A stretch of 64,000 nt of DNA from an uncultured Acidimicrobiia bacterium (GCA_963836205.1 CAWIIV010000006.1:96001-160000); one strand, 5' to 3'; positions 5,106 to 19,416 are shown, counted from the stretch's first letter. Notes: generated by a model from the letters alone, not told the origin. A program made the numbers and translations.

Positions 5106-7106
5106 ATGAAGGTGGTCAAGAAGGTCACGAAGGCGGCGGTCGTGGGGTTCCCGGTGGTGATGTGGTTGAAGAAGCGCAAGTCGCCGGGACCGGTCGTGCC
5201 CAAGGGCTACCACGACAACTTCATCTGGAACACCTGGGACCGCATCGCCACCGCCGTCGACCACAAGCGGGGATGGGACAAGCTCCCCACCTTCCTCGGG
5301 ATCCCGATCCTGATCGGCGTCCGCGACGTCCTGCGCAAGCAGAACCTGTTCGACACCACCGGTCAGCCGGCGGTGAACCCGCCGCCCGTCGACGCCTACG
5401 ACGGCCACGTCCTCACCACCCGCACCGCCGACGGCACCTACAACGACCTCGAGAACCCGGCCATGGGGATGGCGGGGTCGCGGTTCGGGCGCAACGTCCC
5501 GATCGAGGACACCTACCCCGAGGAAGGACCCGATCTCCTCACCCCGAGCCCCCGCGAGATCAGCCGCACGGTGATGATCCGGGACAAGGGAATCATCGAG
5601 GCCACGTCGTGCAACACGCTGGCGGCCAGCTGGTTGCAGTTCATGATCCGGGACTGGTTCAGCCACGGCAAGAGCCCGGCCGACAACCCCATCGAGATCC
5701 CGCTGGCGCCCGACGACGAGTGGCCGACGAACCGGCAACCCGACCGCAAGCCGATGACGATCCCGCGCACCCGCCCCGACCCCACCCGTCCGCCGGGGCC
5801 GAGCGACCTGCCGCCCACCTACACCAACACCGAGACCCACTGGTGGGACCTGTCGAGCATCTACGGCAGCACCAAGCCGTACCGCGACCTGGTGCGCTCC
5901 CGCGTCGACGGCAAGCTCCACGTCACCCAGGCCGGCCTCATCCCCTATCCCACCGACCCCGACCTCAACCCGGCCCTCGTCCCCGGCTTCTGGCTGGGCC
6001 TGGCCATGCTCCAGAACCTGTTCACCCTCGAGCACAACTCCATCTGCGACCACCTGAAGTCGCAGTACCCGGCCCTCACCGACGACCAGCTGTTCGAGCA
6101 CGCCCGCCTGATCACCGCCGCCCTGGTGGCCAAGATCCACACCGTCGAGTGGACGACGGCCGTGATCAGCCACCCGACGACGGTGGTCGCCCTGCGCACC
6201 AACTGGTGGGGCCTGGCCGGCGAGCGCGTCCACAAGCGTTTCGGCCGCATCAGCAAGAGCGAGGTGATCAGCGGCATCCCCGGCTCGGAGGCGCAGCACT
6301 ACAACGTGCCCTACTGCCTCACCGAGGAGTTCGTCGCCGTCTACCGCATGCACCCGCTGCTGCCCGACGACTACCCGCTGTACTCGGCCGCCGACCACTC
6401 CGTGATCGACGCCAAGGCCACCCTGCGCTCCATGGCGGGGCAGGGGGCGATCGACACCCTCGACAAGGTGTCGATGACCGACCTCTTCTACTCCTTCGGC
6501 CAGCTCCACCCGGGGGTGGTCTGCCTCCACAACTTCCCCCGCTTCCTTCAGGAGTTCATCCGGCCCGACGGGCTCATGCTCGACATGGCCGCCCTCGACA
6601 TCGTGCGCTCACGGGAGCTGGGGGTGCCCCGGTACAACGAGTTCCGCAAGCTGCTCCACATGCCGCCGGCGAAGGACTTCCACGACCTCACCGACAACCC
6701 CCAGTGGGCGCAGGAGCTGGAGGACCTCTACGGCGACATCGACAAGGTCGACGTCACCCCGGGCATGTTCGCCGAGCGCCTGCCGAAGGGCTTCGCCTTC
6801 AGCGACACCGCCTTCCGCATCTTCGTGCTGATGGCGTCCCGGCGGCTCAACAGCGACCGGTTCTTCACCGACGACTACACGCCTGAGGTGTACACCAAGG
6901 CCGGGCTCGATTGGATCGACGACAACACCATGGTGACGGTGCTCCTGCGCCACTATCCCCACCTGCGGGGCACCATGCGGGGCGTGCAGAACGCCTTCCA
7001 CCCGTGGGTCAAGGCCGGAGACCTGACCTCGCGCTCCCGGCTCGTCCGGCTCTGGCGCCAGCCGGCGGCGCCGAACACCACCAGCGCGCCGAGGGCGGCG
7101 ACGTAG
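5106..7106 (+). CDS. Animal-type heme peroxidase, fatty-acid alpha-dioxygenase-like
   Basis: RTADGTYNDL, THWWDLSSIYG, AKIHTVEWT, EEFVAVYRMHPLLPD, RSRELGVPRYNEFR, ASRRLNSDRFFT. Confidence 0.92.
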   Translation: MKVVKKVTKAAVVGFPVVMWLKKRKSPGPVVPKGYHDNFIWNTWDRIATAVDHKRGWDKLPTFLGIPILIGVRDVLRKQNLFDTTGQPAVNPPPVDAYDGHVLTTRTADGTYNDLENPAMGMAGSRFGRNVPIEDTYPEEGPDLLTPSPREISRTVMIRDKGIIEATSCNTLAASWLQFMIRDWFSHGKSPADNPIEIPLAPDDEWPTNRQPDRKPMTIPRTRPDPTRPPGPSDLPPTYTNTETHWWDLSSIYGSTKPYRDLVRSRVDGKLHVTQAGLIPYPTDPDLNPALVPGFWLGLAMLQNLFTLEHNSICDHLKSQYPALTDDQLFEHARLITAALVAKIHTVEWTTAVISHPTTVVALRTNWWGLAGERVHKRFGRISKSEVISGIPGSEAQHYNVPYCLTEEFVAVYRMHPLLPDDYPLYSAADHSVIDAKATLRSMAGQGAIDTLDKVSMTDLFYSFGQLHPGVVCLHNFPRFLQEFIRPDGLMLDMAALDIVRSRELGVPRYNEFRKLLHMPPAKDFHDLTDNPQWAQELEDLYGDIDKVDVTPGMFAERLPKGFAFSDTAFRIFVLMASRRLNSDRFFTDDYTPEVYTKAGLDWIDDNTMVTVLLRHYPHLRGTMRGVQNAFHPWVKAGDLTSRSRLVRLWRQPAAPNTTSAPRAAT

Positions 7107-8184: not shown

Positions 8185-11116
8185 ATGGCTGAGGGAGCGC
8201 GGATCGTCGGCCGGCGGGCGGAACTGGAGACGCTCGGCCACGCCCTGGCCGCCCTCGACGAGGGGTCTGCGGCCATGCTCTACGTGGTCGGGGAGCCGGG
8301 CATCGGCAAGACCCGGCTGCTGGCCGAGCTCCACGCCCAGGCCCAGGCCCGCCGCCATCTCGTCCTCGTGGGGCGGGCGGCCGAGTTCGAGCGCGACCTG
8401 CCGTTCGGCCTGTTCGTGGCCGCCCTCGACGACTACCTGGCGTCGCTCACCGACGGCGGCGGGCCGGTATTGCCCGCCGAGCTGGGCGGGATCTTCCCAT
8501 CGCTGGGACACCTGGCCCAGGGCGCGGACACCGGCCTCCAGGAGGAGCGGTACCGGGCCCACCGGGCGGTGCGGGCCCTCCTCGACGGCCTGAGCGAGCG
8601 CCGGCCGGTGGTCCTCGTCCTCGACGACGTCCACTGGGCCGACGCCGCCTCCACCGAGCTCCTCTGCCACCTGGTCGCCCACCGCCCGGCCGGTCCCGTC
8701 CTCCTCGCGGTGGCCATGCGTCCGGTGGGGACCTCGCAACGCCTCGTCTCCGCCCTCGAACAGGCGGCGCGGGACGGCTCCGCCCACCGGCTCGAGCTCG
8801 GTCCCCTGTCGCCCGACGACGCCCGCCGGCTCGTCGGCGGGAGCGCCCCGGCCGACCCCCGGCTCTACCAGGAGAGCGGCGGGAATCCCTTCTACCTGCA
8901 ACAACTGGCGCGGGCCGGGCGGCCGGGCGGACGCGACCGGCGCCTACGACCTGGGCGAGCTGGGTGACCAGGGGGTGCCGCCGGCGGTGCGGGCCGCCCT
9001 GGAGGGCGAGTTGGACGCGCTGTCGGCGCCGGCCCGGGTGTTGCTGGCGGGGGCGGCGGTGTCGGGCGAGTCGTTCGAGCCGGAGCTGGCGGCGGCGGCC
9101 GCGGGGATGGACGGGGCCCAGGCCCTCGACCTCCTCGACGAGCTGGTGCGGCTCGACGTGGTGCGCCCGACGGCGGTCCCCCGCCACTTCCGGTTCCGCC
9201 ACCCGATCGTGCGCCACGGCGTGTACGAGTCGGCCGGCCCGGGGTGGCGGCTCACGGCCCACGCCCGCCTGGCCGAGGTCCTCGAGCGGCAGGGGGCGTC
9301 GCCCCAGGTGCGGGCCCTTCACGTCGAGCGCTCGGCCCGGGCCGGCGACGCCGGCGCCCTCGCCCTGCTGGAGGAGGCGGGCGCGGCCGCCGCCCCCCGG
9401 GCCCCCGCCACCGCCGCCCGCTGGTACCAGGCCGCCGTCCGCCTCCTTCCCCACGACCAGGTCGAGCGCCGCCTGGGCCTGCTGGTCGCCACCGCCACCA
9501 GCCTGGTGTCGGCCGGGCTGTTGGCCGACGCCCGGGCCACCCTGCTCGACGCGATCGACCTGCTCCCGCCGGCGATGGCCGCGGTGCGGGTGCGCCTCAT
9601 CGCGTCCTGCGCCGCCCTCGAACACCTGCTCGGCCGCCACCGCGACGCCCACGGCCGGCTCACCGCCGCCCTCGGAGGCCTGGCCGACCAGGGCTCTCCC
9701 GAGGCGGCCGCCCTGAAGCTCGAGCTGGCCGTCGACGCCATCTACACCTTCGACTTCCCAGCCATGCGTGCGTGGGCAGCGACCGCGGCCGCCGACGCGG
9801 CCGCCATCGGGGCCGCGCCCCTGGAGGCGGCGGCCCTCGCCCTGCTCGGCTTCGCCGAGTACATCCCGGGTGCCACCGCGGTGGCAGGCGGCCATCTCGA
9901 CCGGGCCGCCGCGATCGTCGATCACCTGGCCGACGCCGACCTTGCCCACCAGCTCGACGCCACCTACTACCTGTGCTGGGCCGAGAACTTCATGGAGCGC
10001 TTCGAGCGCTCGCTGCGCCACACCGAGCGGGGCATCGCCCTGTCGCAGGCGTCGGGCCAGGGCCACCTGCTCGTCCCCCTCATGCTCGGCCGGGTGTACG
10101 CCCTGGTGGCCCGGGGCCGGTGCGCGGAGGCGTGCGAGCTGGCCGAGGTGGCGGAGGACGCGGCCCGGCTGGCCGCCAATCCCCAGTCCCTGTCGTGGGC
10201 CCTGTGGGTACGGGCCCTGGCCGCCACCGCCGCCGGCGACCACGCATCGGCGTTGCGTTCGGGCGAGGAGTGCATGGAGGTCGGCCGCACCGTCGACGAC
10301 AACGTGATCTCCGCCACCGGCGGTTGGGTGTTCGGCGCCACCCTGCTGGCGGCGGGCGAGCCCGAACGGTGCCGGGCCGAGGTGCTGAAGGCCGGCGGCG
10401 GTCCCGACCTCGACCGGGTCGGTTCCGGCGTGCGCTGCACGTGCTACGAGCTGCTGACCCGGGCCGAGCTGGCCCTCGGCCGGCGGGTGGAGGCGGCCGG
10501 GTGGGCGGCGCGGGCGGCGTCGGCGGCGGCCGGGTTGACCCTCGACGTGGCCCAGGCGGCGGCGAACCGGGCCCAGGCGCTGGTGCTGGTGGAGGCGGGC
10601 GAGCACGCCCGGGCCGCGGAACTGGCCCTGGCCGCAGCCGCGGCCTGCGAGCGGGCGTCCGCCCCCATCGAGGCGGCCCGGTCGCGGGTGCTGGCGGGGC
10701 GGGCGCTGGCCCTGGCCGGCGACCGGGAGCAGGCGGTGCCCGAACTGGAGCGAGCGGAGCGGGAGCTGGCCGCGTGCGGGGCCCCGTCCTACCGGGCCGA
10801 GGCCGTCCGCGAGCTGGAACGGCTGGGGAAGCGGGTCCGGGTTGACGGCGGCGGAGGCGGTGGTGGCTCGAGCGGCGGCGGTGGTCCGGGTTCGTCCGGC
10901 GCGTCGGCATTGGTCTCCCTGACCGCCCGGGAGCGGGAGGTGGCCGATCTGGTCGCGGCCGGCAACACCAACCGGGAGATCGCCAGTGCCCTCTACCTGA
11001 GCGAGAAGACGGTCGAGAGCCACCTCTCGCACATCTTCACCAAGCTCGGCGTTTCGTCCCGGGCCCGCCTCACGACCCTGCTCGCCCGCCACCCTCAGGG
11101 TCCGGGATCAGGGTAG
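8185..11116 (+). CDS. LAL-family regulator (AAA ATPase + LuxR HTH), frameshift near 8940
   Basis: GEPGIGKT, LDDVHWAD, SGGNPFYL, FRHPIVR, LTAREREVA...TVESHLSHIFTKLG; two consecutive ORFs. Confidence 0.9.
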
Positions 11117-12715: not shown

Positions 12716-13725
12716 CTGGGGCGGGCGCAGCCGGCGGCCACAGCGTAAAGCGGTGCCACCGAGGTCGTGCGTCGATTCGGCGGGAGCGTGATGACTGCGA
12801 AGTGGACCGGACAGGCTCACTGAGCAAGCCGATGCCGGTTGTCGTCGAAGAGCTGCCGACCCGCCTCGGTTAGAACCCGATAGTCGCCATCCTTCCGCAG
12901 ACTCGCCGTGCCTTGGTAGAAGCCCGCCACACCTCGCGGGTCGTAGCCCTCCTGGACAGCGAGATCACGCGCCACGCTGTAGTGGTGCCGCCCGTCCGGC
13001 GCCTCGTAGAAGTGCTTCAGGTACCGAAGAAGCCGGACCATGCGCCAACCCGGCTCCCTGGCCTCCTCAGGCGTGATCGGCTCGATCGCATCGCCGATCA
13101 AGTCCGCAAGGTCGTCGGAGCGCAGCCGTTGACCGGGGTCGGCCCTTCGGCCAGCACCGAACCTCACCCCCTCCGCCTCCAGAACGAGGTGAATGTCTCG
13201 TCCATCGTTCGGGTCACTCCATCGAAACGCGTCGGCCACACGACCCTCCGACGTGAGAACCCGATGAGCATTGAGCAGGTCCGCCGTCCTCGCCAAGTGC
13301 TGGCCGACTGGGACCTGGTGAGAGCCGATCAGCTCAGCCAGATCGCCGTAGGTGGTCCAGGACCCCGTCGGTAGAGCTGCGAGTGCAGCGTGGAGGCGCC
13401 TCCAGTCCCGACCCTCCTCGGGTTCCTCGACGTCTGCCAACGGGGCGGGCCAGATTGCGATCGCGCGATCCGCCAGCTCATCCGCTCGGGCGAGAATGTC
13501 GGCGCGCCCCCACGTTTCCGCAGGCACGATGGCCCGATTCAGCTCGAGGTGGCTCCCATGGAGGATCTCCTGCTTCCGTTCGAACGGCCGGTTGGACAGC
13601 TGCCCGTTGTACGCCGTCACTGTGAGATTCCCAAGCGTGTGCAAGAGCTCAGAGTGCACCGCTGCTGGGTCCTGACCCTCCGCCGCGATCGCTTCTCTCC
13701 ATTCGTCAGTTAGCGACTGGGGCAT

Positions 13726-15664
13726 GGTGCGTCCTCGAAGCTGGACCAGACCAGCGGGTGTGAGTCCCGCCCGGGTAATCGCCGGAGAGCCCGGTAGCAG
13801 GCCCCGGTTCGTCGCCGAGAGGCGGCGGGCTGAGCGGGGCGTCAAGAGCCTCTTCGGAGGGAGCAAGCGTGCGGGCCGTAGCGCCACCAGGCGTGAGTCC
13901 TGCAGCCTCGTCAGATGTACAACGGGGGAGCCGAGCCGCTCATGTCACGGCCAAGGCCCACGTCCGACCGACTGGCGTTCCGGAATGCCCCTGGTCGGGT
14001 CCCCCCGGGGTATGGGGAGCGGCACGTACGCAAGGTCAGGTTCGGAAGGGGAGAGACCCGTCTGCGCAGCCTCGTCAGCAAAGACCGCTCGTATAAGCCA
14101 GTGGTGAAATCGAGCGGAGCGCAGCGGGAGTCCGACGGGGTCGTAGTACCGCCAGCCGGCGGGAAGGGCCCCGACTTTGGTCACGCCGACGATGGGGGTA
14201 AGCACAAGGGCATGGCCGGGACCGCCCGGTCCAAATCCCCCGCCGGGCAGACGCCCGTCGACAACGTGCGAAAACTCCAGAACCGGCTATGGGCTGCGGC
14301 CAAGCAGTCTCCGGGTCGCCGCTTCCACGCCCTGTACGACCGCATCCACCGGAGTGACGTCCTGTGGGAGGCGTGGAGGCGGGTCCGAGCCAATCGTGGC
14401 GCCGCCGGGGTCGATCGTCTGACCCTGGAGGCGGTGGAGGACTACGGGGTCGGGCGCATGCTCGACGAGCTTTCCCGTGACCTCCGTGCAGGCAACTACC
14501 GCCCGGCACCTGTGCGCCGGGTGGAGATCCCCAAGCCCGACGGCCGGATGCGGCCCCTGGGCATCCCCACCGTGCGCGACCGGGTGTGCCAGGCGGCAGC
14601 CAAGATCGTCCTCGAGCCCATCTTCGAGGCCGACTTCCTGCCGACCAGCTTCGGTTTCCGACCGAAGCGCTCGGCCACCGACGCCCTGGAAGCCATCCGG
14701 GTGGCGTTCCCCCGAGGACGGCAGTTCGTCTTCGAGGCCGACATCCGCGACTTCTTCGGCCAGATCGACCACGACCGCCTCCTGGTCGAGGTCGAACGGC
14801 GCGTCTCGGACCGGCGGGTGCTCAAGCTCATCCGCCAGTGGCTGCGTGCAGGGGTGCTGGTCGAGGGGGTGCGCTCCGAGACGGTCACGGGCACGCCCCA
14901 GGGCGGGGTCATCTCCCCGCTGCTGGCCAACGTCTACCTGCACGCCTTCGACCGGTCCTGGGCCGAGTCCGGCACCGGCGAGCTCGTCCGCTACGCGGAC
15001 GACTTCGTGGTGTTGTGCACGACCCGGGAACAAGCCGATGAAGCTCAATTGCGGGCAGCCGCCATGTTGGGCGACCTCGGTCTGAGCCTGCACCCGGACA
15101 AGACCCGCGTGGTCGATCTTCGGGAGGGCAAGGAGGGCTTCGACTTCCTGGGCTGTCACCTTCACGCCCGCATGTCGGGTCGCCTGTGGGAGCAGCGGCG
15201 CATCGTCCGCTACTACCTGCACCGGTGGCCGTCACAGCGGTCCATGAAGCGGGCACGACTGCGAATCAAGGCCCTCACCGGTCGGAGCCGGCTCGGTTTG
15301 GAGTTGGAGGACGTGATCGACGACCTCAACCTGTTCCTTCGGGGATGGGGCAACTACTTCCGCACCGGGAACGCGGCCGACAAGTTCGTCTCCCTCGACC
15401 GGCACGTCGTGTGGCGGCTCAAGCGCCTCTTGATCAAGAAGCGGGGCCGCAACCTGCGAGCCGGCCAGGCCGAGCGTTGGACGCACGCCTGGTTCCACGA
15501 CCAGGGCCTGCACCAGCTCATGGGCACCATCCGTTACCCGAAGGCTGCGTAACCATGTCCAGAAGACCATCGGTGAGCCGTGTGCGGGAAAACCGCACGC
15601 ACGGAATCGAAAGGGGGAGGGGGAAACGTGCTCGTCAGCGAGCGGCGCGCCCCTGACAACCAAT
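13726..15664 (+). mobile_element. Group II intron (RT/maturase without endonuclease), antisense to host gene
   Basis: (G)GTGCG 5' end; domain V GAGCCGTGTGCGGGAAAACCGCACGCACGG near 15575-15604; ends AAT; removal restores host codons GTC ATG. Confidence 0.93.
14212..15552 (+). CDS. ltrA: Group II intron reverse transcriptase/maturase
   Basis: RPLGIPTVRDR, GTPQGGVISPLLAN, RYADD, GFDFLG, LRGWGNYF. Confidence 0.95.
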   Translation: MAGTARSKSPAGQTPVDNVRKLQNRLWAAAKQSPGRRFHALYDRIHRSDVLWEAWRRVRANRGAAGVDRLTLEAVEDYGVGRMLDELSRDLRAGNYRPAPVRRVEIPKPDGRMRPLGIPTVRDRVCQAAAKIVLEPIFEADFLPTSFGFRPKRSATDALEAIRVAFPRGRQFVFEADIRDFFGQIDHDRLLVEVERRVSDRRVLKLIRQWLRAGVLVEGVRSETVTGTPQGGVISPLLANVYLHAFDRSWAESGTGELVRYADDFVVLCTTREQADEAQLRAAAMLGDLGLSLHPDKTRVVDLREGKEGFDFLGCHLHARMSGRLWEQRRIVRYYLHRWPSQRSMKRARLRIKALTGRSRLGLELEDVIDDLNLFLRGWGNYFRTGNAADKFVSLDRHVVWRLKRLLIKKRGRNLRAGQAERWTHAWFHDQGLHQLMGTIRYPKAA

Positions 15665-16292
15665 GACGTGCTCAATCGAGAGCTTGGACGCTGACCAATC
15701 CACGGGCTCGGCGTGCTTGTAGCTGTCCTCCAGCCGTTGAAAGACCAGCATCTTCTGGTTCTGCCGACCCTGGTAATAGAACGGCTGGCTGCGAATCGCG
15801 ACACGGAGACGACGATCTGACGGCCAATACTTGCGCGGCCCTGACAAGGCGTGCCTGACGGCCTCGACGATCGGCATCTTCACTGGCAGCTGCGACACCA
15901 GTGAACTGAATACGCGGTTGAGGTTGTTGGTCGGGACACTCGCGATCATTCGTCGAACAAGGAAGCTCTCGACGTACGAGAGGGCTTCGAGCACTTCGAC
16001 GGGGGTGCACTCGCCGGCCTCGCGAAGGAGGTAGAGATGAAGCAGCAGCGGGTACGTCGTTGACGCTCCCCAGGCATCGAGCCGGGTGAGCGCCCCTCTG
16101 ACCTCCGGATCCTCCTCGTATTCGGGCTGGACGATCCGGCGGAACAGGGCTGCTCGTCGAACAAGCTCTCGTACTTCCGCTTCGACGCCAGTCTCGTCGC
16201 CTTCGAGGCCTCGCAGCCGATCTTGTTGAGCTCTGTAGATGTCAGGCCGTTTGATCGTGTTCCGACCTCGGACGACGAGATCGACGAAAACC

Positions 16293-17596
16293 GGCTCTCC
16301 TGACCACGATGTGGATCAGGACGCCTCTTTCCAGACCACCCGCTCGTGCGGCAGCTTGATGTCGATGGGCCCGGCAGCGAGCATGACGAGGGCCAGGGCC
16401 GCGTCGGCGGAATGGAACCCGTACGCCCTGCGGATGATGAGGCGGACCTTGGTGTTGAAGCCCTCCACCCGGCCGTTGGAGATCCCGTGCTCGACGGCGT
16501 TGAGGATCATCTCCCGACGCTGGCGCATGGTCTTGGCCACCTTGACGAACGGCGCCAGCCGCGATCTCTGGGCTCGGGCGCACCACCGGTCGAGAAGCTC
16601 GCCCGCCTCGTCGCGGGTGAGGTCGCCGGCCAGGATGGCCCGGAACTGCTCCTTCATCTCATAGGCCCGCCACATCCCGCCCCGGTTGCGTCGGATGCGC
16701 TTGAGCTGGGCGGCCTGGGTGCTGGTCAGGTCCTCGGGGTTCTTCAGCAGGGCCCACCGGGCTCCCTTGAAGTCCTTGGCCCAGCGGTCGTCGGGAAGCC
16801 GGCGCAGCTGGTTCCACAGGTCCCGGCGGACCTCGTCGAGAGCGTCGCCCACCAGGCACACGAGGTGGAACGGATCGGCGCACACGATGGCCTGGGGAGC
16901 GTGTCCCTCGGCCTTGACGCTCTTGAGGTAGGCCGGGCCCAGATCCATGGAAATGGCGCTGAGCTGGGACGATCGCTGAAAATGAGTGTGTAGGAGATGG
17001 TAAGGAGGTAGGTGGTGTGGAGAGATGTGAGATGGAGGCGTCGAGGCGGAGCTAGTGTGCGGGCGCCGTCGCCAGAAGCAGGAGAGACCGCCGTGCGGTC
17101 CATCCTCGTCGCCAGCCACGCCAGCAGGTCGTCGAGGTCCCGGGTGAGGTTCGCCCCCGGCCGGGCGAAGGGGACGGCCTCCACCACCACGCCGTGGTCG
17201 GGGCAACGAAGACGGCGCAGGCTGGCCCGGACCTCCAGCCGCCAGGTGCCCAGGTCGAGGTGGCGCCACCACGACGGCGCCGGCCGGGTGTCGTAGCGGA
17301 ACCGGGTCTTGAACCCGCAATGGGGGCAGACCAGCCGCCGCCGGCGCAGGGCCACGGTGACGATCACGATCGTGGTCAGGAACTCCACGGCGACGACGTT
17401 GACGTCGTCGAGCCGAAGGAGGCGCTTGAATGCGGTGGTGACGCGCACGGGTTGAGGACCTCCCGGTTCAGGGGTGTGAGAAGTCCGTGAACCTTGGCCC
17501 GGCCCGTGCGCGTCACGCGGATACCGGAAGACCTGCTCAGCCAGCCACTACACGCCTGCCGGCTCCGATCCCATCCACACTTGGGTCAGGAGAGCC
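16293..17596 (-). mobile_element. ISL3-family insertion sequence
   Basis: TIRs GGCTCTCCTGACC...GTGGAT at both ends; 8-bp TSD CGAAAACC at 16285-16292 and 17597-17604. Confidence 0.93.
16316..17448 (-). pseudogene. ISL3 transposase, internally disrupted
   Basis: CPHC zinc finger, WRHLD, RRLRCPDHG; SMDLGPAY, DPFHLV, SNGRVEGFNTK, RRAYGF; central part replaced by low-complexity sequence. Confidence 0.85.
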
Positions 17597-18590
17597 CGAA
17601 AACCAAGGTCTCGAGTTGAGCGGGAGTGAGTTGCTCCTGCATCGGTCGCCAGAGCTGCTCGTAGACGACCTCCGATCGCGTTGGCAGGAGCATGAAGACG
17701 AAGTTACGAAGCAGGTCAGCCTGCGTGAGGCGGACGCCGCGATCGTTCAGTGACTCGAAGATACGATGGACGTTGTCGTTCGCATCGGCTGTGATCGCTA
17801 CGAAATGAAGTCTCTGGCGCACCACTGCTTCGATACGTTCAGGGTCGAGCGGCTCGTTGTCAGGGCCCACCTGTGTCAGACGGGAACGGAAGAACGAATA
17901 GGCGCTGCCTATTCCGCCGCGCGCTTCGCTTGGTCGGCTCGGTCGACGCACGCGAAGAACGCCTGACGGTCGACCTGCGTAGGAAGCAGACGGTAGAACG
18001 ACGACCCCTTCCCGTACTTGTTGATGAGGTACCGCTCGTTGAAGCGCTCTACTGCCCCCGGATCGTTCGCCGCCACGTGATCGCGCAAAGCGCACAGGGC
18101 CACGAGGAGTGTCGTGAGGCGCTGTTGGCCATCGATTACGAGAAACGGGGTGACACCGTGAGCCTGAATAAGAGGTGACGGGGCGAGAACAAGACTCCCG
18201 AGAAAGTGCGTCGGCGCCCGGCTATCGAGCTTGCCGAATTCATCCGGGGTGAGGACGTCGTACTGTTCAAGTACGTCCTCCCAGAGCTGGCTGAGCTGTG
18301 GCGAGCCCCAGGCGTATTGCCGCTGATACAGGGGAACCTGAAATTGCTTCTCGCCTTCTATGAGCTCCTTGAGAGTGCTCTCTCCGACCTGCATGCCCCC
18401 TACCAGCCCCACCGGGCGGGGAGGACACGGGTTGCGGCCCCCCGGATCGTGACCATCGGGAACTCACGCACCGTAACGCCCCGCCCGGCCCCGAGGTTCA
18501 TCGTCCTGTACCGCTGGACGAACAACCGGCGGCGACAGGGGCATGTCGATCTCGACTCGGGCCTGCGCTTCGGGCCGATGTAGCGCTGGG

Positions 18591-18986
18591 TCAGGCATCG
18601 AGTTCGCCGGGGTGCTCGACCCGCAGGTCGCCCATCGGGAAATCGTCGGTGTTGTGGGTCAGCAGGACCGCGCCGTGGGCCCGTGCGGTTCCGGCGACGA
18701 GCGCGTCGGGCGTTTGATGGTGCGGCCCCGCCTCGCCCAGTCGGCCTGGTACCGCCCGGCTCGATGGGCGGCTTCGCGGTCGGTGACCAGGAATCGGAGC
18801 CGGCCGAGCAAGGCCGTTGCCTGACGGCGCTCGGGCTCCCGGAGGCCGGCCTCCACCTCGGCCAGGTTGACGCACGTCGTGGCGAGCACATGACCGCCCG
18901 CAACAAGGCGAAGCATGGTCGGCCTTCACCTCCGGCCGTCCCCGCAGCCACTCGATGAGAACGGTGCTATCGAGTAGGAAGGTCAT
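18591..18986 (-). CDS. PIN-domain toxin (VapC-like), two compensating frameshifts
   Basis: FLLDSTVLI; NLAEVEAG in alternate frame; PDALVAGTA..LLTHNTDDF. Confidence 0.8.
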   Translation of the reverse strand: MTFLLDSTVLIEWLRGRPEVKADHASPCCGRSCARHDVRQPGRGGGRPPGARAPSGNGLARPAPIPGHRPRSRPSSRAVPGRLGEAGPHHQTPDALVAGTARAHGAVLLTHNTDDFPMGDLRVEHPGELDA

Positions 18987-19230
18987 CGGCGGTCAGATCT
19001 CCCCGGCGGGATGCGCGTACCCACTCTTTGACGTCCTCGGGGTCCCGCCAGTGCGGGTAGTCCTCGTCCTTCAGAATCCCGGCGCCATCGTGGATCGCGG
19101 CCTCCAGCTCGAGCCGTTCCAGCTTCTCCCGGGCCGCTTCCTCCAGGAATCTGCTCCGGCCCCGCTCGCCGACCCGCTCGTCGATGGCGGCGATGACCTC
19201 GTCGGCGAGGATGACGTGCGTTCGAGCCAC
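18967..19230 (-). CDS. RHH antitoxin (VapB-like)
   Basis: MARTHVILADEVIAAIDERVGERGRSRFLEEA, directly upstream of and overlapping the PIN gene. Confidence 0.8.
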   Translation of the reverse strand: MARTHVILADEVIAAIDERVGERGRSRFLEEAAREKLERLELEAAIHDGAGILKDEDYPHWRDPEDVKEWVRASRRGDLTADDLPTR

Positions 19231-19341: not shown

Positions 19342-19416
19342 TGGAGCGGACGACGGGATTCGAACCCGCGACCCCAACCTTGGCAAGGTTGTGCTCTACC
19401 ACTGAGCCACGTCCGC
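19342..19416 (-). tRNA. tRNA-Gly(GCC)
   Basis: GCGGACG acceptor stem, AACCT-TGCCAAG-GTT anticodon region, GGTTCGAATCC, encoded CCA. Confidence 0.98.

Follow-up and report, generated by a model that had tools for sequence, protein, structure and literature searches.

The window analyzed here, a 64,000-nucleotide (nt) stretch from an uncultured Acidimicrobiia bacterium (GCA_963836205.1, CAWIIV010000006.1:96001-160000), carries on its minus strand, at 12817..18394, a broken gene for a GmrSD-family nuclease whose tail consists of an alkyltransferase-like (ATL-like) domain and a winged helix. As read from the sequence, the gene begins with an ATG at 18394-18392 and ends with a stop codon at 12819-12817, and it is interrupted three times between the two; removal of the insertions gives a protein of ~774 amino acids (aa). 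An intact homologue of 774 aa, P0002, was the reference for all fragment matches. When P0002 was compared with the assembly around the window (4.05 Mb in 25 contigs, 88.6% complete), exactly four colinear pieces were returned, corresponding to residues 1-160, 155-266, 262-474, and 473-773, with identities of 79-89%, E values of 1.8e-57 to 1.1e-168, and internal stops in none. A preliminary description of the window had given these coordinates, the domain order, and a length of about 775 aa, and it was right on all of them because P0002 returns just these four pieces, which cover residues 1-773 of 774. Chance open reading frames (ORFs) were ruled out as the source of the fragments by E values down to 1e-168 against P0002. 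The P0002 search found no second intact copy of the gene elsewhere in the 4.05-Mb, 88.6% complete assembly.

The domains follow the order GmrSD_N (DUF262), GmrSD_C (DUF1524/HNH), DNA_binding_1 (the MGMT fold, here with the motif NAHRV), and C-terminal winged helix, all on the minus strand. Fragment 1 (17912..18394; P0002 residues 1-160, 89% identity) holds the N-terminal, ParB-like part of GmrSD_N with the DGQQR motif, and Pfam matched GmrSD_N (PF03235) in ORF 17909-18412 at 81.7 bits over profile positions 1-112. Fragment 2 (17597..17920; P0002 residues 155-266, 81% identity) contains the end of that domain and the first part of the middle region, and here PF03235 positions 143-199 were matched at 36.2 bits in an ORF of a different frame (17586-18095). 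Fragment 3 (15665..16292; P0002 residues 262-474, 79% identity) carries the middle region and the first third of GmrSD_C, ending in ..LSIEHV; the GmrSD_C (PF07510) match in ORF 15635-15994 scored 21.3 bits over profile positions 1-54, where the cut-off is 23. The rest of GmrSD_C, with HTLGNLT..N..N, and the linker (..IWPAP..) after it lie at 13417..13725. This segment belongs to ORF 12817-13887, which matched PF07510 positions 55-137 at 58.2 bits and DNA_binding_1 (PF01035) at 30.7 bits. The ATL-like domain occupies 13102..13416, with NAHRV at 13258-13272, and the winged helix 12820..13077.

The interruptions are the three that the preliminary description had listed, namely one frameshift, an ISL3 element, and an intron, and each was located. 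By comparison with P0002, the frameshift falls in a GC-rich run at about 17915..17925 on the minus strand. Fragment 1 reads ..QAKRAAE and then meets a TAG at 17909-17911, and the next frame past the frameshift reads ..RGGIGSAYSFF.., for which the P0002 counterpart is ..AKRTGGIGNAYSFF... The overlap between P0002 matches 1-160 and 155-266 agrees with a frameshift here.

Between fragments 2 and 3 lies an ISL3-family element of 1304 nt (16293..17596, minus strand), recognized by Zn_ribbon_ISL3, HTH_Tnp_ISL3, and DDE_Tnp_ISL3 (179.7 bits). Its terminal inverted repeats are 24 nt long and 83% complementary, and an 8-bp target duplication, GGTTTTCG, flanks it at 17597-17604 and 16285-16292. Excision of the element together with one GGTTTTCG copy restores the frame, joining ..LETLVF to VDLVVRG.. 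identically to P0002. There are six other copies with the same ends in the genome. At 16978-17082 the window copy has ~104 nt of C/T-rich sequence with lower GC content, compared with 237 nt in the six other copies, and its transposase is divided between two ORFs (16744-17448 and 16316-17320); the ISL3 copy is itself degenerate.

A group II intron of ~1939 nt (13726..15664, plus strand, ends accurate to 1 nt) sits between ..LSIEHV and MPQSLTDEW.. and splits the HNH region. It contains, all on the plus strand, a reverse transcriptase/maturase ORF (13915-15552; RVT_1 125 bits, GIIM 58 bits), domains D1-D4 (RF02003, 91 bits, at 13752-13886), and a domain V at ~15575-15608, which scored 29.3 bits against RF00029 (E 4e-4; gathering score 40) and has a clear D5 hairpin. 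The preliminary reconstruction had removed an intron from the gene. The intron is indeed present, but it lies on the strand opposite to the gene, so it cannot be spliced from the gene's mRNA and simply disrupts the gene. Seven further matches occur in the genome (one identical and full length, one identical and cut at a contig end, and five at ~90% identity), and the copies have a common 5' end. Together with the window copy, these matches (L032-L038) form two subfamilies, of 100% and ~90% identity, and in all eight the G(G/T)TGCG start is directly preceded by ..(C/G)(A/G)T, which suggests a shared short target motif. Both mobile elements are multicopy in the host genome.

An open, expressible gene is not present at the locus, and the gene is dead and functionless in the host genome because of the frameshift, the ISL3 element, and the antisense intron. 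The locus is almost certainly a pseudogene of a GmrSD-type nuclease. As the fragments contain no further stops, the inactivation looks recent. For the host genome this is an ordinary outcome, in which a gene was knocked out by the strain's own insertion sequence and intron.

Intact orthologues of ~774 aa are common. With the C-terminal 302 residues as query, 671 longer proteins were found at E<=1e-3, the best with 84% identity. The top 73 were nearly all 772-780 aa long, with identities of 62-84%, and most of them have precomputed PF03235, PF07510, and PF01035 annotations; one database often names the relatives 'alkylated DNA nucleotide flippase Atl1'. The DGQQR motif is found in fragment 1 as VIDGQQRLTT, intact P0002 matched PF07510 at 96.5 bits, and the HNH-type sequence, in which ..IEHV is followed by MPQ..HTLGNLT..N..N, was invariant in 103 close GmrSD-fused relatives, including residues H29, N33, N40, and N45. 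PADLOC profiles for Orf5 (~500 bits), HEC-06, and mREase_IV covered residues ~5-565 of intact members. Among solved structures, the family profile matched the DUF262 protein 9jfl_B (E 8.7e-28, positions 8-565) and SspE (6jiv, E 1.3e-13), the latter in its N-domain only. The invariance of the DGQQR and HNH-type residues indicates that the core is a normal GmrSD-type nuclease, and intact relatives probably act in defense or restriction.

GmrSD and BrxU share with the window gene both core domains, their order, and the DGQQR and HNH-type motifs. The window gene differs from them in its extra C-terminal ATL-like domain and winged helix, and in being a pseudogene. SspE, a phosphorothioate-sensing protein of DUF262 and DUF1524, has the DUF262 N-domain in common with the family (PADLOC SspE, 46-78 bits), but the match is limited to the first ~100 residues. 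No ssp genes were seen in the neighborhoods examined, which were the window and the related loci.

The last 203 residues were modeled with AlphaFold2 from 103 aligned sequences, and the model showed two domains with a mean predicted local distance difference test (pLDDT) score of 88.5, and of above 90 in the ATL-like domain. The best match to model residues 5-109 was the Vibrio parahaemolyticus ATL protein (vpAtl, 2kim_A; Z 9.5, root-mean-square deviation 2.9, 95/102 residues), and human AGT (O6-alkylguanine-DNA alkyltransferase, 1eh6_A) was matched at Z 7.5. The top Foldseek rows were nearly all AGT or ATL proteins, including 2kif and 3gva, with TM scores of 0.65-0.66 over the target (0.65 for Schizosaccharomyces pombe Atl1); the family profile matched Atl1 at E 3.8e-4. 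Like the ATL proteins, the tail domain comes without the AGT N-terminal domain and has the AGT C-terminal-domain fold. An MGMT/ATL fold had been claimed from the sequence, and the structure model, a check that could have gone against the claim, came out in its favor. The same was true of a further C-terminal domain of ~80 aa: the last ~85 aa (model residues ~118-203) were modeled as a winged helix with MarR/PadR-like topology, the closest structures being 4b8x_B (Z 8.3), 8ylf_A (Z 7.9), and 2co5_B (Z 7.7). At Z 7-8.3, this likeness is evidence of a common fold only.

The elements described for AGT and ATL proteins are the acceptor Cys (replaced in ATL proteins, mostly by Trp), the loop of the active site, a helix-turn-helix (HTH), an Arg finger, an Asn hinge, and a base-flipping Tyr (Tessmer and Margison, PMC10779285, available in part). 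In pairwise alignment, STYGEI of Atl1 corresponded to TTYGDL of the window domain, with the Tyr kept; SYARQVGQ corresponded to SHQVPVGQ, with Val for the Arg finger; and PWHRV corresponded to NAHRV, with Ala at the Trp position. The Thermus ATL protein also has Ala at the acceptor position. Residues were then counted in the 103 close GmrSD-fused relatives and in the 150 best library representatives from a profile search with the domain. The flipping Tyr was present in 102/103 relatives and 146/150 representatives; in most of the related Actinomadura/Spirillospora loci, this position is Phe. Ala was found at the acceptor position in 88 of the 103 relatives and Gly in 12, and Cys in none of the 103 or of the 150. 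The nucleophilic Cys that Ogt, Ada, and MGMT carry in (I/V)PCHR(V/I) is therefore not present, and NAHRV stands in place of PCHRV, as had been noticed in the preliminary description. The genome has two canonical PF01035 genes of its own (118 and 105 bits), and the pseudogene's copy is a divergent third (33.6 bits). Taken together, the domain is an ATL fold that has no Cys and has not kept the canonical intercalating residue. With the Arg finger missing and the motif remodeled, it need not work like Atl1.

The profile search used the domain only (16 sequences) against 1.84 billion cluster representatives; at E limits of 1e-3, 1e-10, and 1e-30, it returned 5046, 625, and 4 proteins, respectively. 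The clade has the signature W-T-[TS]-Y-G-D ... N-A-[HYW]-R-V-L ... F-x-W-x-D ... E-G-V-x-F. In the 150 best representatives, the conserved positions were held by W in 150, Tyr in 146, N in 109, Ala in 120 (Cys in 0), H, Y, or W in 145, R in 149, V in 139, L in 147, F in 146, and W in 144. A C-x2-C pair just ahead of N-A-x-R-V, which might bind a metal or form a disulfide, occurred in 49/150 (profile positions 48 and 51), mainly in fusions other than GmrSD; the window copy is without it. Compared with the ATL proteins (S. pombe Atl1, vpAtl, and E. coli ATL), the domain has in common the fold, the loss of Cys, the Tyr, and H/Y-R-V. It differs from them in being fused to nucleases, in having N-A-[HYW]-R-V for P-W-H-R-V, in an added invariant F-x-W-x-D, in the loss of the Arg finger from the GmrSD-fused group, and in the C-x2-C pair of one third of the clade.

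Pfam was run on 40 of the 150 best representatives and found GmrSD parts in most. The others included a fusion of TIR_2 to the ATL-like domain (P0207) and a protein with Mrr_N, ATL-like, and AAA_5 domains in the layout of McrB-type motors (P0229); the AAA_5 part of this layout was seen in P0262, and the Mrr_N and ATL-like part in P0186 and P0265. P0239 joined the ATL-like domain to RAMA, and its N-terminus matched PDC-S14 by PADLOC (157 bits), as did that of P0183 (175 bits). The N-termini of P0131 and P0126 matched PDC-S11 (170 and 146 bits). GmrSD parts were combined with RAMA and then an ATL-like domain in P0249, where the latter was recognized by our profile and not by Pfam, with an ATL-like domain and a C-terminal ADP-ribosylglycohydrolase (238 bits) in P0170 (1082 aa), and, as GmrSD_C, with ATL-like and DUF4268 domains in P0196.

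All 150 representatives were also sorted by blastp against reference segments. GmrSD parts were found in 53, the long tail only in 4, a PDC-S11-type N-terminus in 18, PDC-S14 in 3, Mrr_N/McrB-like parts in 4, TIR in 1, other N-termini in 4, and the shared middle region only in 8; the 55 left unassigned, mostly short (93-470 aa), are free-standing proteins or fragments. Actinobacterial PDC-S11-type proteins have a form of ~345 aa without the ATL-like domain and a form of ~466 aa with it, the latter in Streptomyces often annotated as 'MGMT family protein' or 'DNA-binding protein'. PF01939 is recorded for 2/113 PDC-S11-type homologues, and this, with the Madara preprint discussed below, is the basis for a tentative reading of PDC-S11 as PD-(D/E)XK. 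A RAMA assignment was not supported for the region common to the PDC-S11-type and TIR fusions, where Pfam was blank even at E<=1, and GIY-YIG was not accepted for the PDC-S14 N-terminus, the match being at E 0.34 only.

Free-standing members of the clade were also seen. A 258-aa ORF with the ATL-like domain and winged helix (L001:2649-3425, on a contig of a Nitriliruptorales metagenome-assembled genome) is 83% identical to the P0002 tail and is flanked by transporter genes, and a 115-aa ATL-like ORF is found at L019 (P0121); these could be remnants or independent genes. Among 401 genomes of the phylum, the tail was matched in 15 at E<=1e-5, counting the window's genome and the unpublished G088. 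By our reading of the loci, apart from these two genomes, four of the matches were GmrSD fusions (L018, L020, L021, and L024), and the others were small and free-standing, three of them with a true PCHR.

Within the GmrSD family itself, tails were typed in the best 120 of the 671 relatives, of which 115 were at least 640 aa long. The ATL-like domain was followed by the winged helix in 70, by either of two longer tails in 16 and 12, and by another ending in 8, and the remaining 9 had the winged helix without the ATL-like domain. One of these, P0084 (665 aa), equals P0002 minus residues 577-682, with 69% identity in the core and 59% in the winged helix. In a FastTree phylogeny of the core (SH-like supports and midpoint root, from a sample gathered with a tail-containing query), the nine ATL-less proteins formed one clade with a support of 100. 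This clade nested in a 16-row clade (support 96) together with P0001-P0006 and P0010, which are the closest to the window gene. The tree thus points to one clean loss of the ATL-like domain, if the root lies outside the 16-row clade. Given the presence of the same clade on several effectors and its apparent clean loss in one GmrSD subclade, we argue from the sequences that the ATL-like domain is a swappable DNA-sensing cassette.

We favor, with a probability of roughly 0.6, the reading that the locus once encoded a single-chain Type IV (modification-dependent) nuclease of the GmrSD family, ending in an ATL-like domain and a winged helix, and was inactivated recently, and that the cassette is an accessory DNA sensor. 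In intact relatives, the DUF262 NTPase/HNH core would cut DNA as in GmrSD and BrxU, and the cassette would bind DNA via its HTH. The conserved residues of Tyr, N-A-x-R-V, and F-x-W may line a pocket that holds a nucleotide, and the cassette could set or widen the range of foreign (modified) DNA that is attacked, with modified guanine as one candidate base. That the cassette discriminates between bases is a tentative suggestion, somewhat more doubtful than probable, and that it reads modified guanine in particular is unlikely.

Several observations weigh against this reading. The copy in the window is dead, so the strain's phenotype teaches nothing. The support for an ATL relationship is modest, with 30.7 bits in Pfam against a cut-off of 27 and a best Foldseek E value of 2.3e-3. 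At the Arg-finger position, the 103 relatives have Val in 70, Met in 17, Gln in 10, and Arg in 0; the window has Val, and only 24 of the 150 representatives have Arg. The Asn-hinge position is variable as well (Arg in the window; N in 42, S in 22, and T in 18 of the 103 relatives), its equivalence in the shorter loop being taken from our own alignment. The persistence of the ATL-less clade means that the nuclease can do without the domain. Defense-island association was not shown: the pseudogene's neighbors in the window include a LuxR-type regulator, a PIN protein, tRNA-Gly, dUTPase, and Orn, and of the 122 ORFs of 80 aa or more called in nine related loci, 60 were scanned with PADLOC (E<=1e-15) and only 6 matched, in 2 loci, 3 of the 6 being kinases, a generic match. 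The preliminary description knew of no functional characterization of such a fusion, and in the literature searched (subscription journals not covered) we likewise found none, nor an experiment on any family member.

These results allow more than one scenario. The ATL-like domain and winged helix could form a non-specific DNA anchor that contacts the minor groove via the HTH and raises affinity or processivity, while the GmrSD core does the sensing of modifications, as in BrxU. The absence of the Arg finger (0/103) and the unconserved Asn hinge would fit an anchor, as would the ATL-less clade, which retains the core and winged helix, and the variation of what follows the ATL-like domain (winged helix, two longer types, and others); the HTH of AGT is itself reported to bind DNA non-specifically (PMC10779285, available in part). 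However, N-A-x-R-V-L, F-x-W-x-D, and the Tyr, which extend beyond the HTH, are near-invariant across very different partners, and such pocket-side conservation is more than a plain anchor would need. The domain is also placed where McrB-type and other Type IV enzymes have their readers, and we consider an anchor rather unlikely. A module for protein interaction or regulation, which would dock nucleotide excision repair proteins as ATL proteins do or auto-inhibit the nuclease, is far less probable still. ATL proteins do hand lesions to nucleotide excision repair (PMC10779285), and free-standing ORFs of the clade exist (258 aa at L001; 115 aa at L019/P0121), but conservation is highest in the HTH and the DNA-facing Tyr, and no conserved partner gene was seen beside the homologues examined.

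The accessory-sensor reading leaves a choice of bases. The domain might read O6-alkylguanine or a related modified guanine, such as a 7-deazaguanine derivative, and either direct the nuclease to phage DNA or fire on alkylation damage to the cell's own DNA. The nearest solved relatives, vpAtl and Atl1, bind O6-alkylguanine, the Cys is replaced while the Tyr and H/Y-R-V are kept, and a genome with two canonical PF01035 genes would not need a divergent third copy for repair. Set against this are the loss of the Arg finger, the change of Pro-Trp/Cys to Asn-Ala, and a loop before the motif that, in our own alignment, has two residues fewer than that of human AGT; these changes suggest a remodeled pocket that may take a different base, and the genomic context gives no support to damage-triggered suicide. 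We regard this version as quite improbable. A broader proposal is that the N-A-x-R-V clade serves as a base-flipping reader devoted to modified purines (for example, 7-deazaguanine derivatives or O6- or N-substituted guanine) and has been placed on at least five effectors, namely GmrSD-HNH, NucS-like Madara, PDC-S14, TIR, and McrB-like AAA+. This is doubtful; if true, it would make the clade a new class of Type IV restriction reader, the first aimed at guanine modifications, with the ATL-less sister clade as a built-in control. To our knowledge, the well-studied Type IV readers all target modified cytosine, adenine, or thymine-type bases.

Only one paper joining GmrSD or DUF262 with an alkyltransferase or Atl1 was found in the literature searched. 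Machnicka et al. (2015, PMC4619093) listed DNA_binding_1 (PF01035) as an extra domain of several homologues of GmrSD, most of them from Streptomyces, an architecture that is the same as that of the window gene. In the part of the paper that was available, PF01035 is described only as the DNA-binding domain of methyltransferase repair proteins, and nothing is said of the missing Cys, an ATL relationship, other fusion partners, or function. A GmrSD-ATL fusion was not found among the papers listed on GmrSD and deazaguanine, nor was the term 'alkyltransferase-like' among the defense papers listed. As the fusion has been on record since 2015 and 'Atl1' already occurs in database names, the novel element is the cassette pattern rather than the fusion. 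What appears from sequence comparison to be new here is the same ATL-like clade on PDC-S11/Madara-type, PDC-S14, TIR, and McrB-like AAA+ proteins, together with its clean loss in one GmrSD subclade.

PDC-S11 has been renamed Madara in a preprint (bioRxiv 10.64898/2026.09.05.749240, available in part), which describes a modification-dependent NucS-like nuclease with an EVE-like domain; T4 with glucosyl-hydroxymethylcytosine is restricted by it, and T4 whose cytosine is plain is not. In actinobacterial proteins of ~450-470 aa, a PDC-S11-type N-terminus (146-170 bits) is combined with the same ATL-like clade, and Madara/PDC-S11, like GmrSD, has forms with and without the ATL-like domain. Madara differs from GmrSD in its nuclease fold, and the E. 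coli Madara tested in that preprint carries an EVE-like and not an ATL-like domain. Other Type IV fusions of a reader to a nuclease, such as SRA-HNH (e.g., TagI) and winged-helix fusions, follow the same logic of a small reader on interchangeable modules (PMC11037411). Helbrecht et al. described winged-helix fusions as N6-methyladenine-dependent Type IV enzymes and suggested the same for RAMA fusions, and the available part of their paper makes no mention of an AGT/ATL-fold reader (PMC11037411). No paper in the literature searched names the AGT/ATL fold as a Type IV reader. How GmrSD-type enzymes recognize modification is still unclear according to the authors of the BrxU study (PMC12409352, available in part). 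The recurrence of a strongly conserved, Cys-less alkylguanine-binder fold on modification-dependent nucleases, a TIR domain, and McrB-like motors makes it a tangible candidate for a new class of reader, and the family provides clean natural controls in cassette-bearing and cassette-less forms of one nuclease that are 69% identical.

Related loci were found with P0002 alone. There were 11, of which 9 were from Actinomadura/Spirillospora, too few and too closely related for an enrichment analysis, and the neighborhoods of these nine differed. One of the nine had a DrmD-like SNF2 helicase (435 bits), and one had a UvrD/GajB-like helicase, kinases, and a PprPDDEXK-like protein (456 bits). At six loci (L004, L005, and L007-L010), the GmrSD-ATL gene has a conserved same-strand neighbor 37-40 nt upstream that encodes a Ser/Thr kinase of ~600 aa, and a protein of ~2000 aa without a Pfam match, likewise conserved, is encoded on the opposite strand.

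In the window, the pseudogene is accompanied by a split AAA_16/LuxR regulator, a peptidoglycan-binding protein, a VapC-like PIN protein, tRNA-Gly(GCC), dUTPase, and Orn (oligoribonuclease). The PIN ORF (18591-18986) has a weak Pfam match, and beyond it lie a small upstream ORF (18967-19230) and, beside that, tRNA-Gly(GCC) at 19342-19416. The GC content is 0.60-0.70 from ~11 to 19.5 kb, compared with 0.73-0.80 in the flanks, and this low-GC stretch may be an islet acquired beside the tRNA. An AAA_16 ATPase ORF (8185-8967) is followed 8 nt on by a long ORF (8975-11116) that ends in a LuxR-type HTH, and 8185-11116 looks like either one large LuxR-family regulator that was split or two adjacent genes. 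The window also encodes an animal-heme-peroxidase family protein (5106-7106, 343 bits), which is unusual in bacteria, and a Mutator-family transposase (926-2170, 464 bits).

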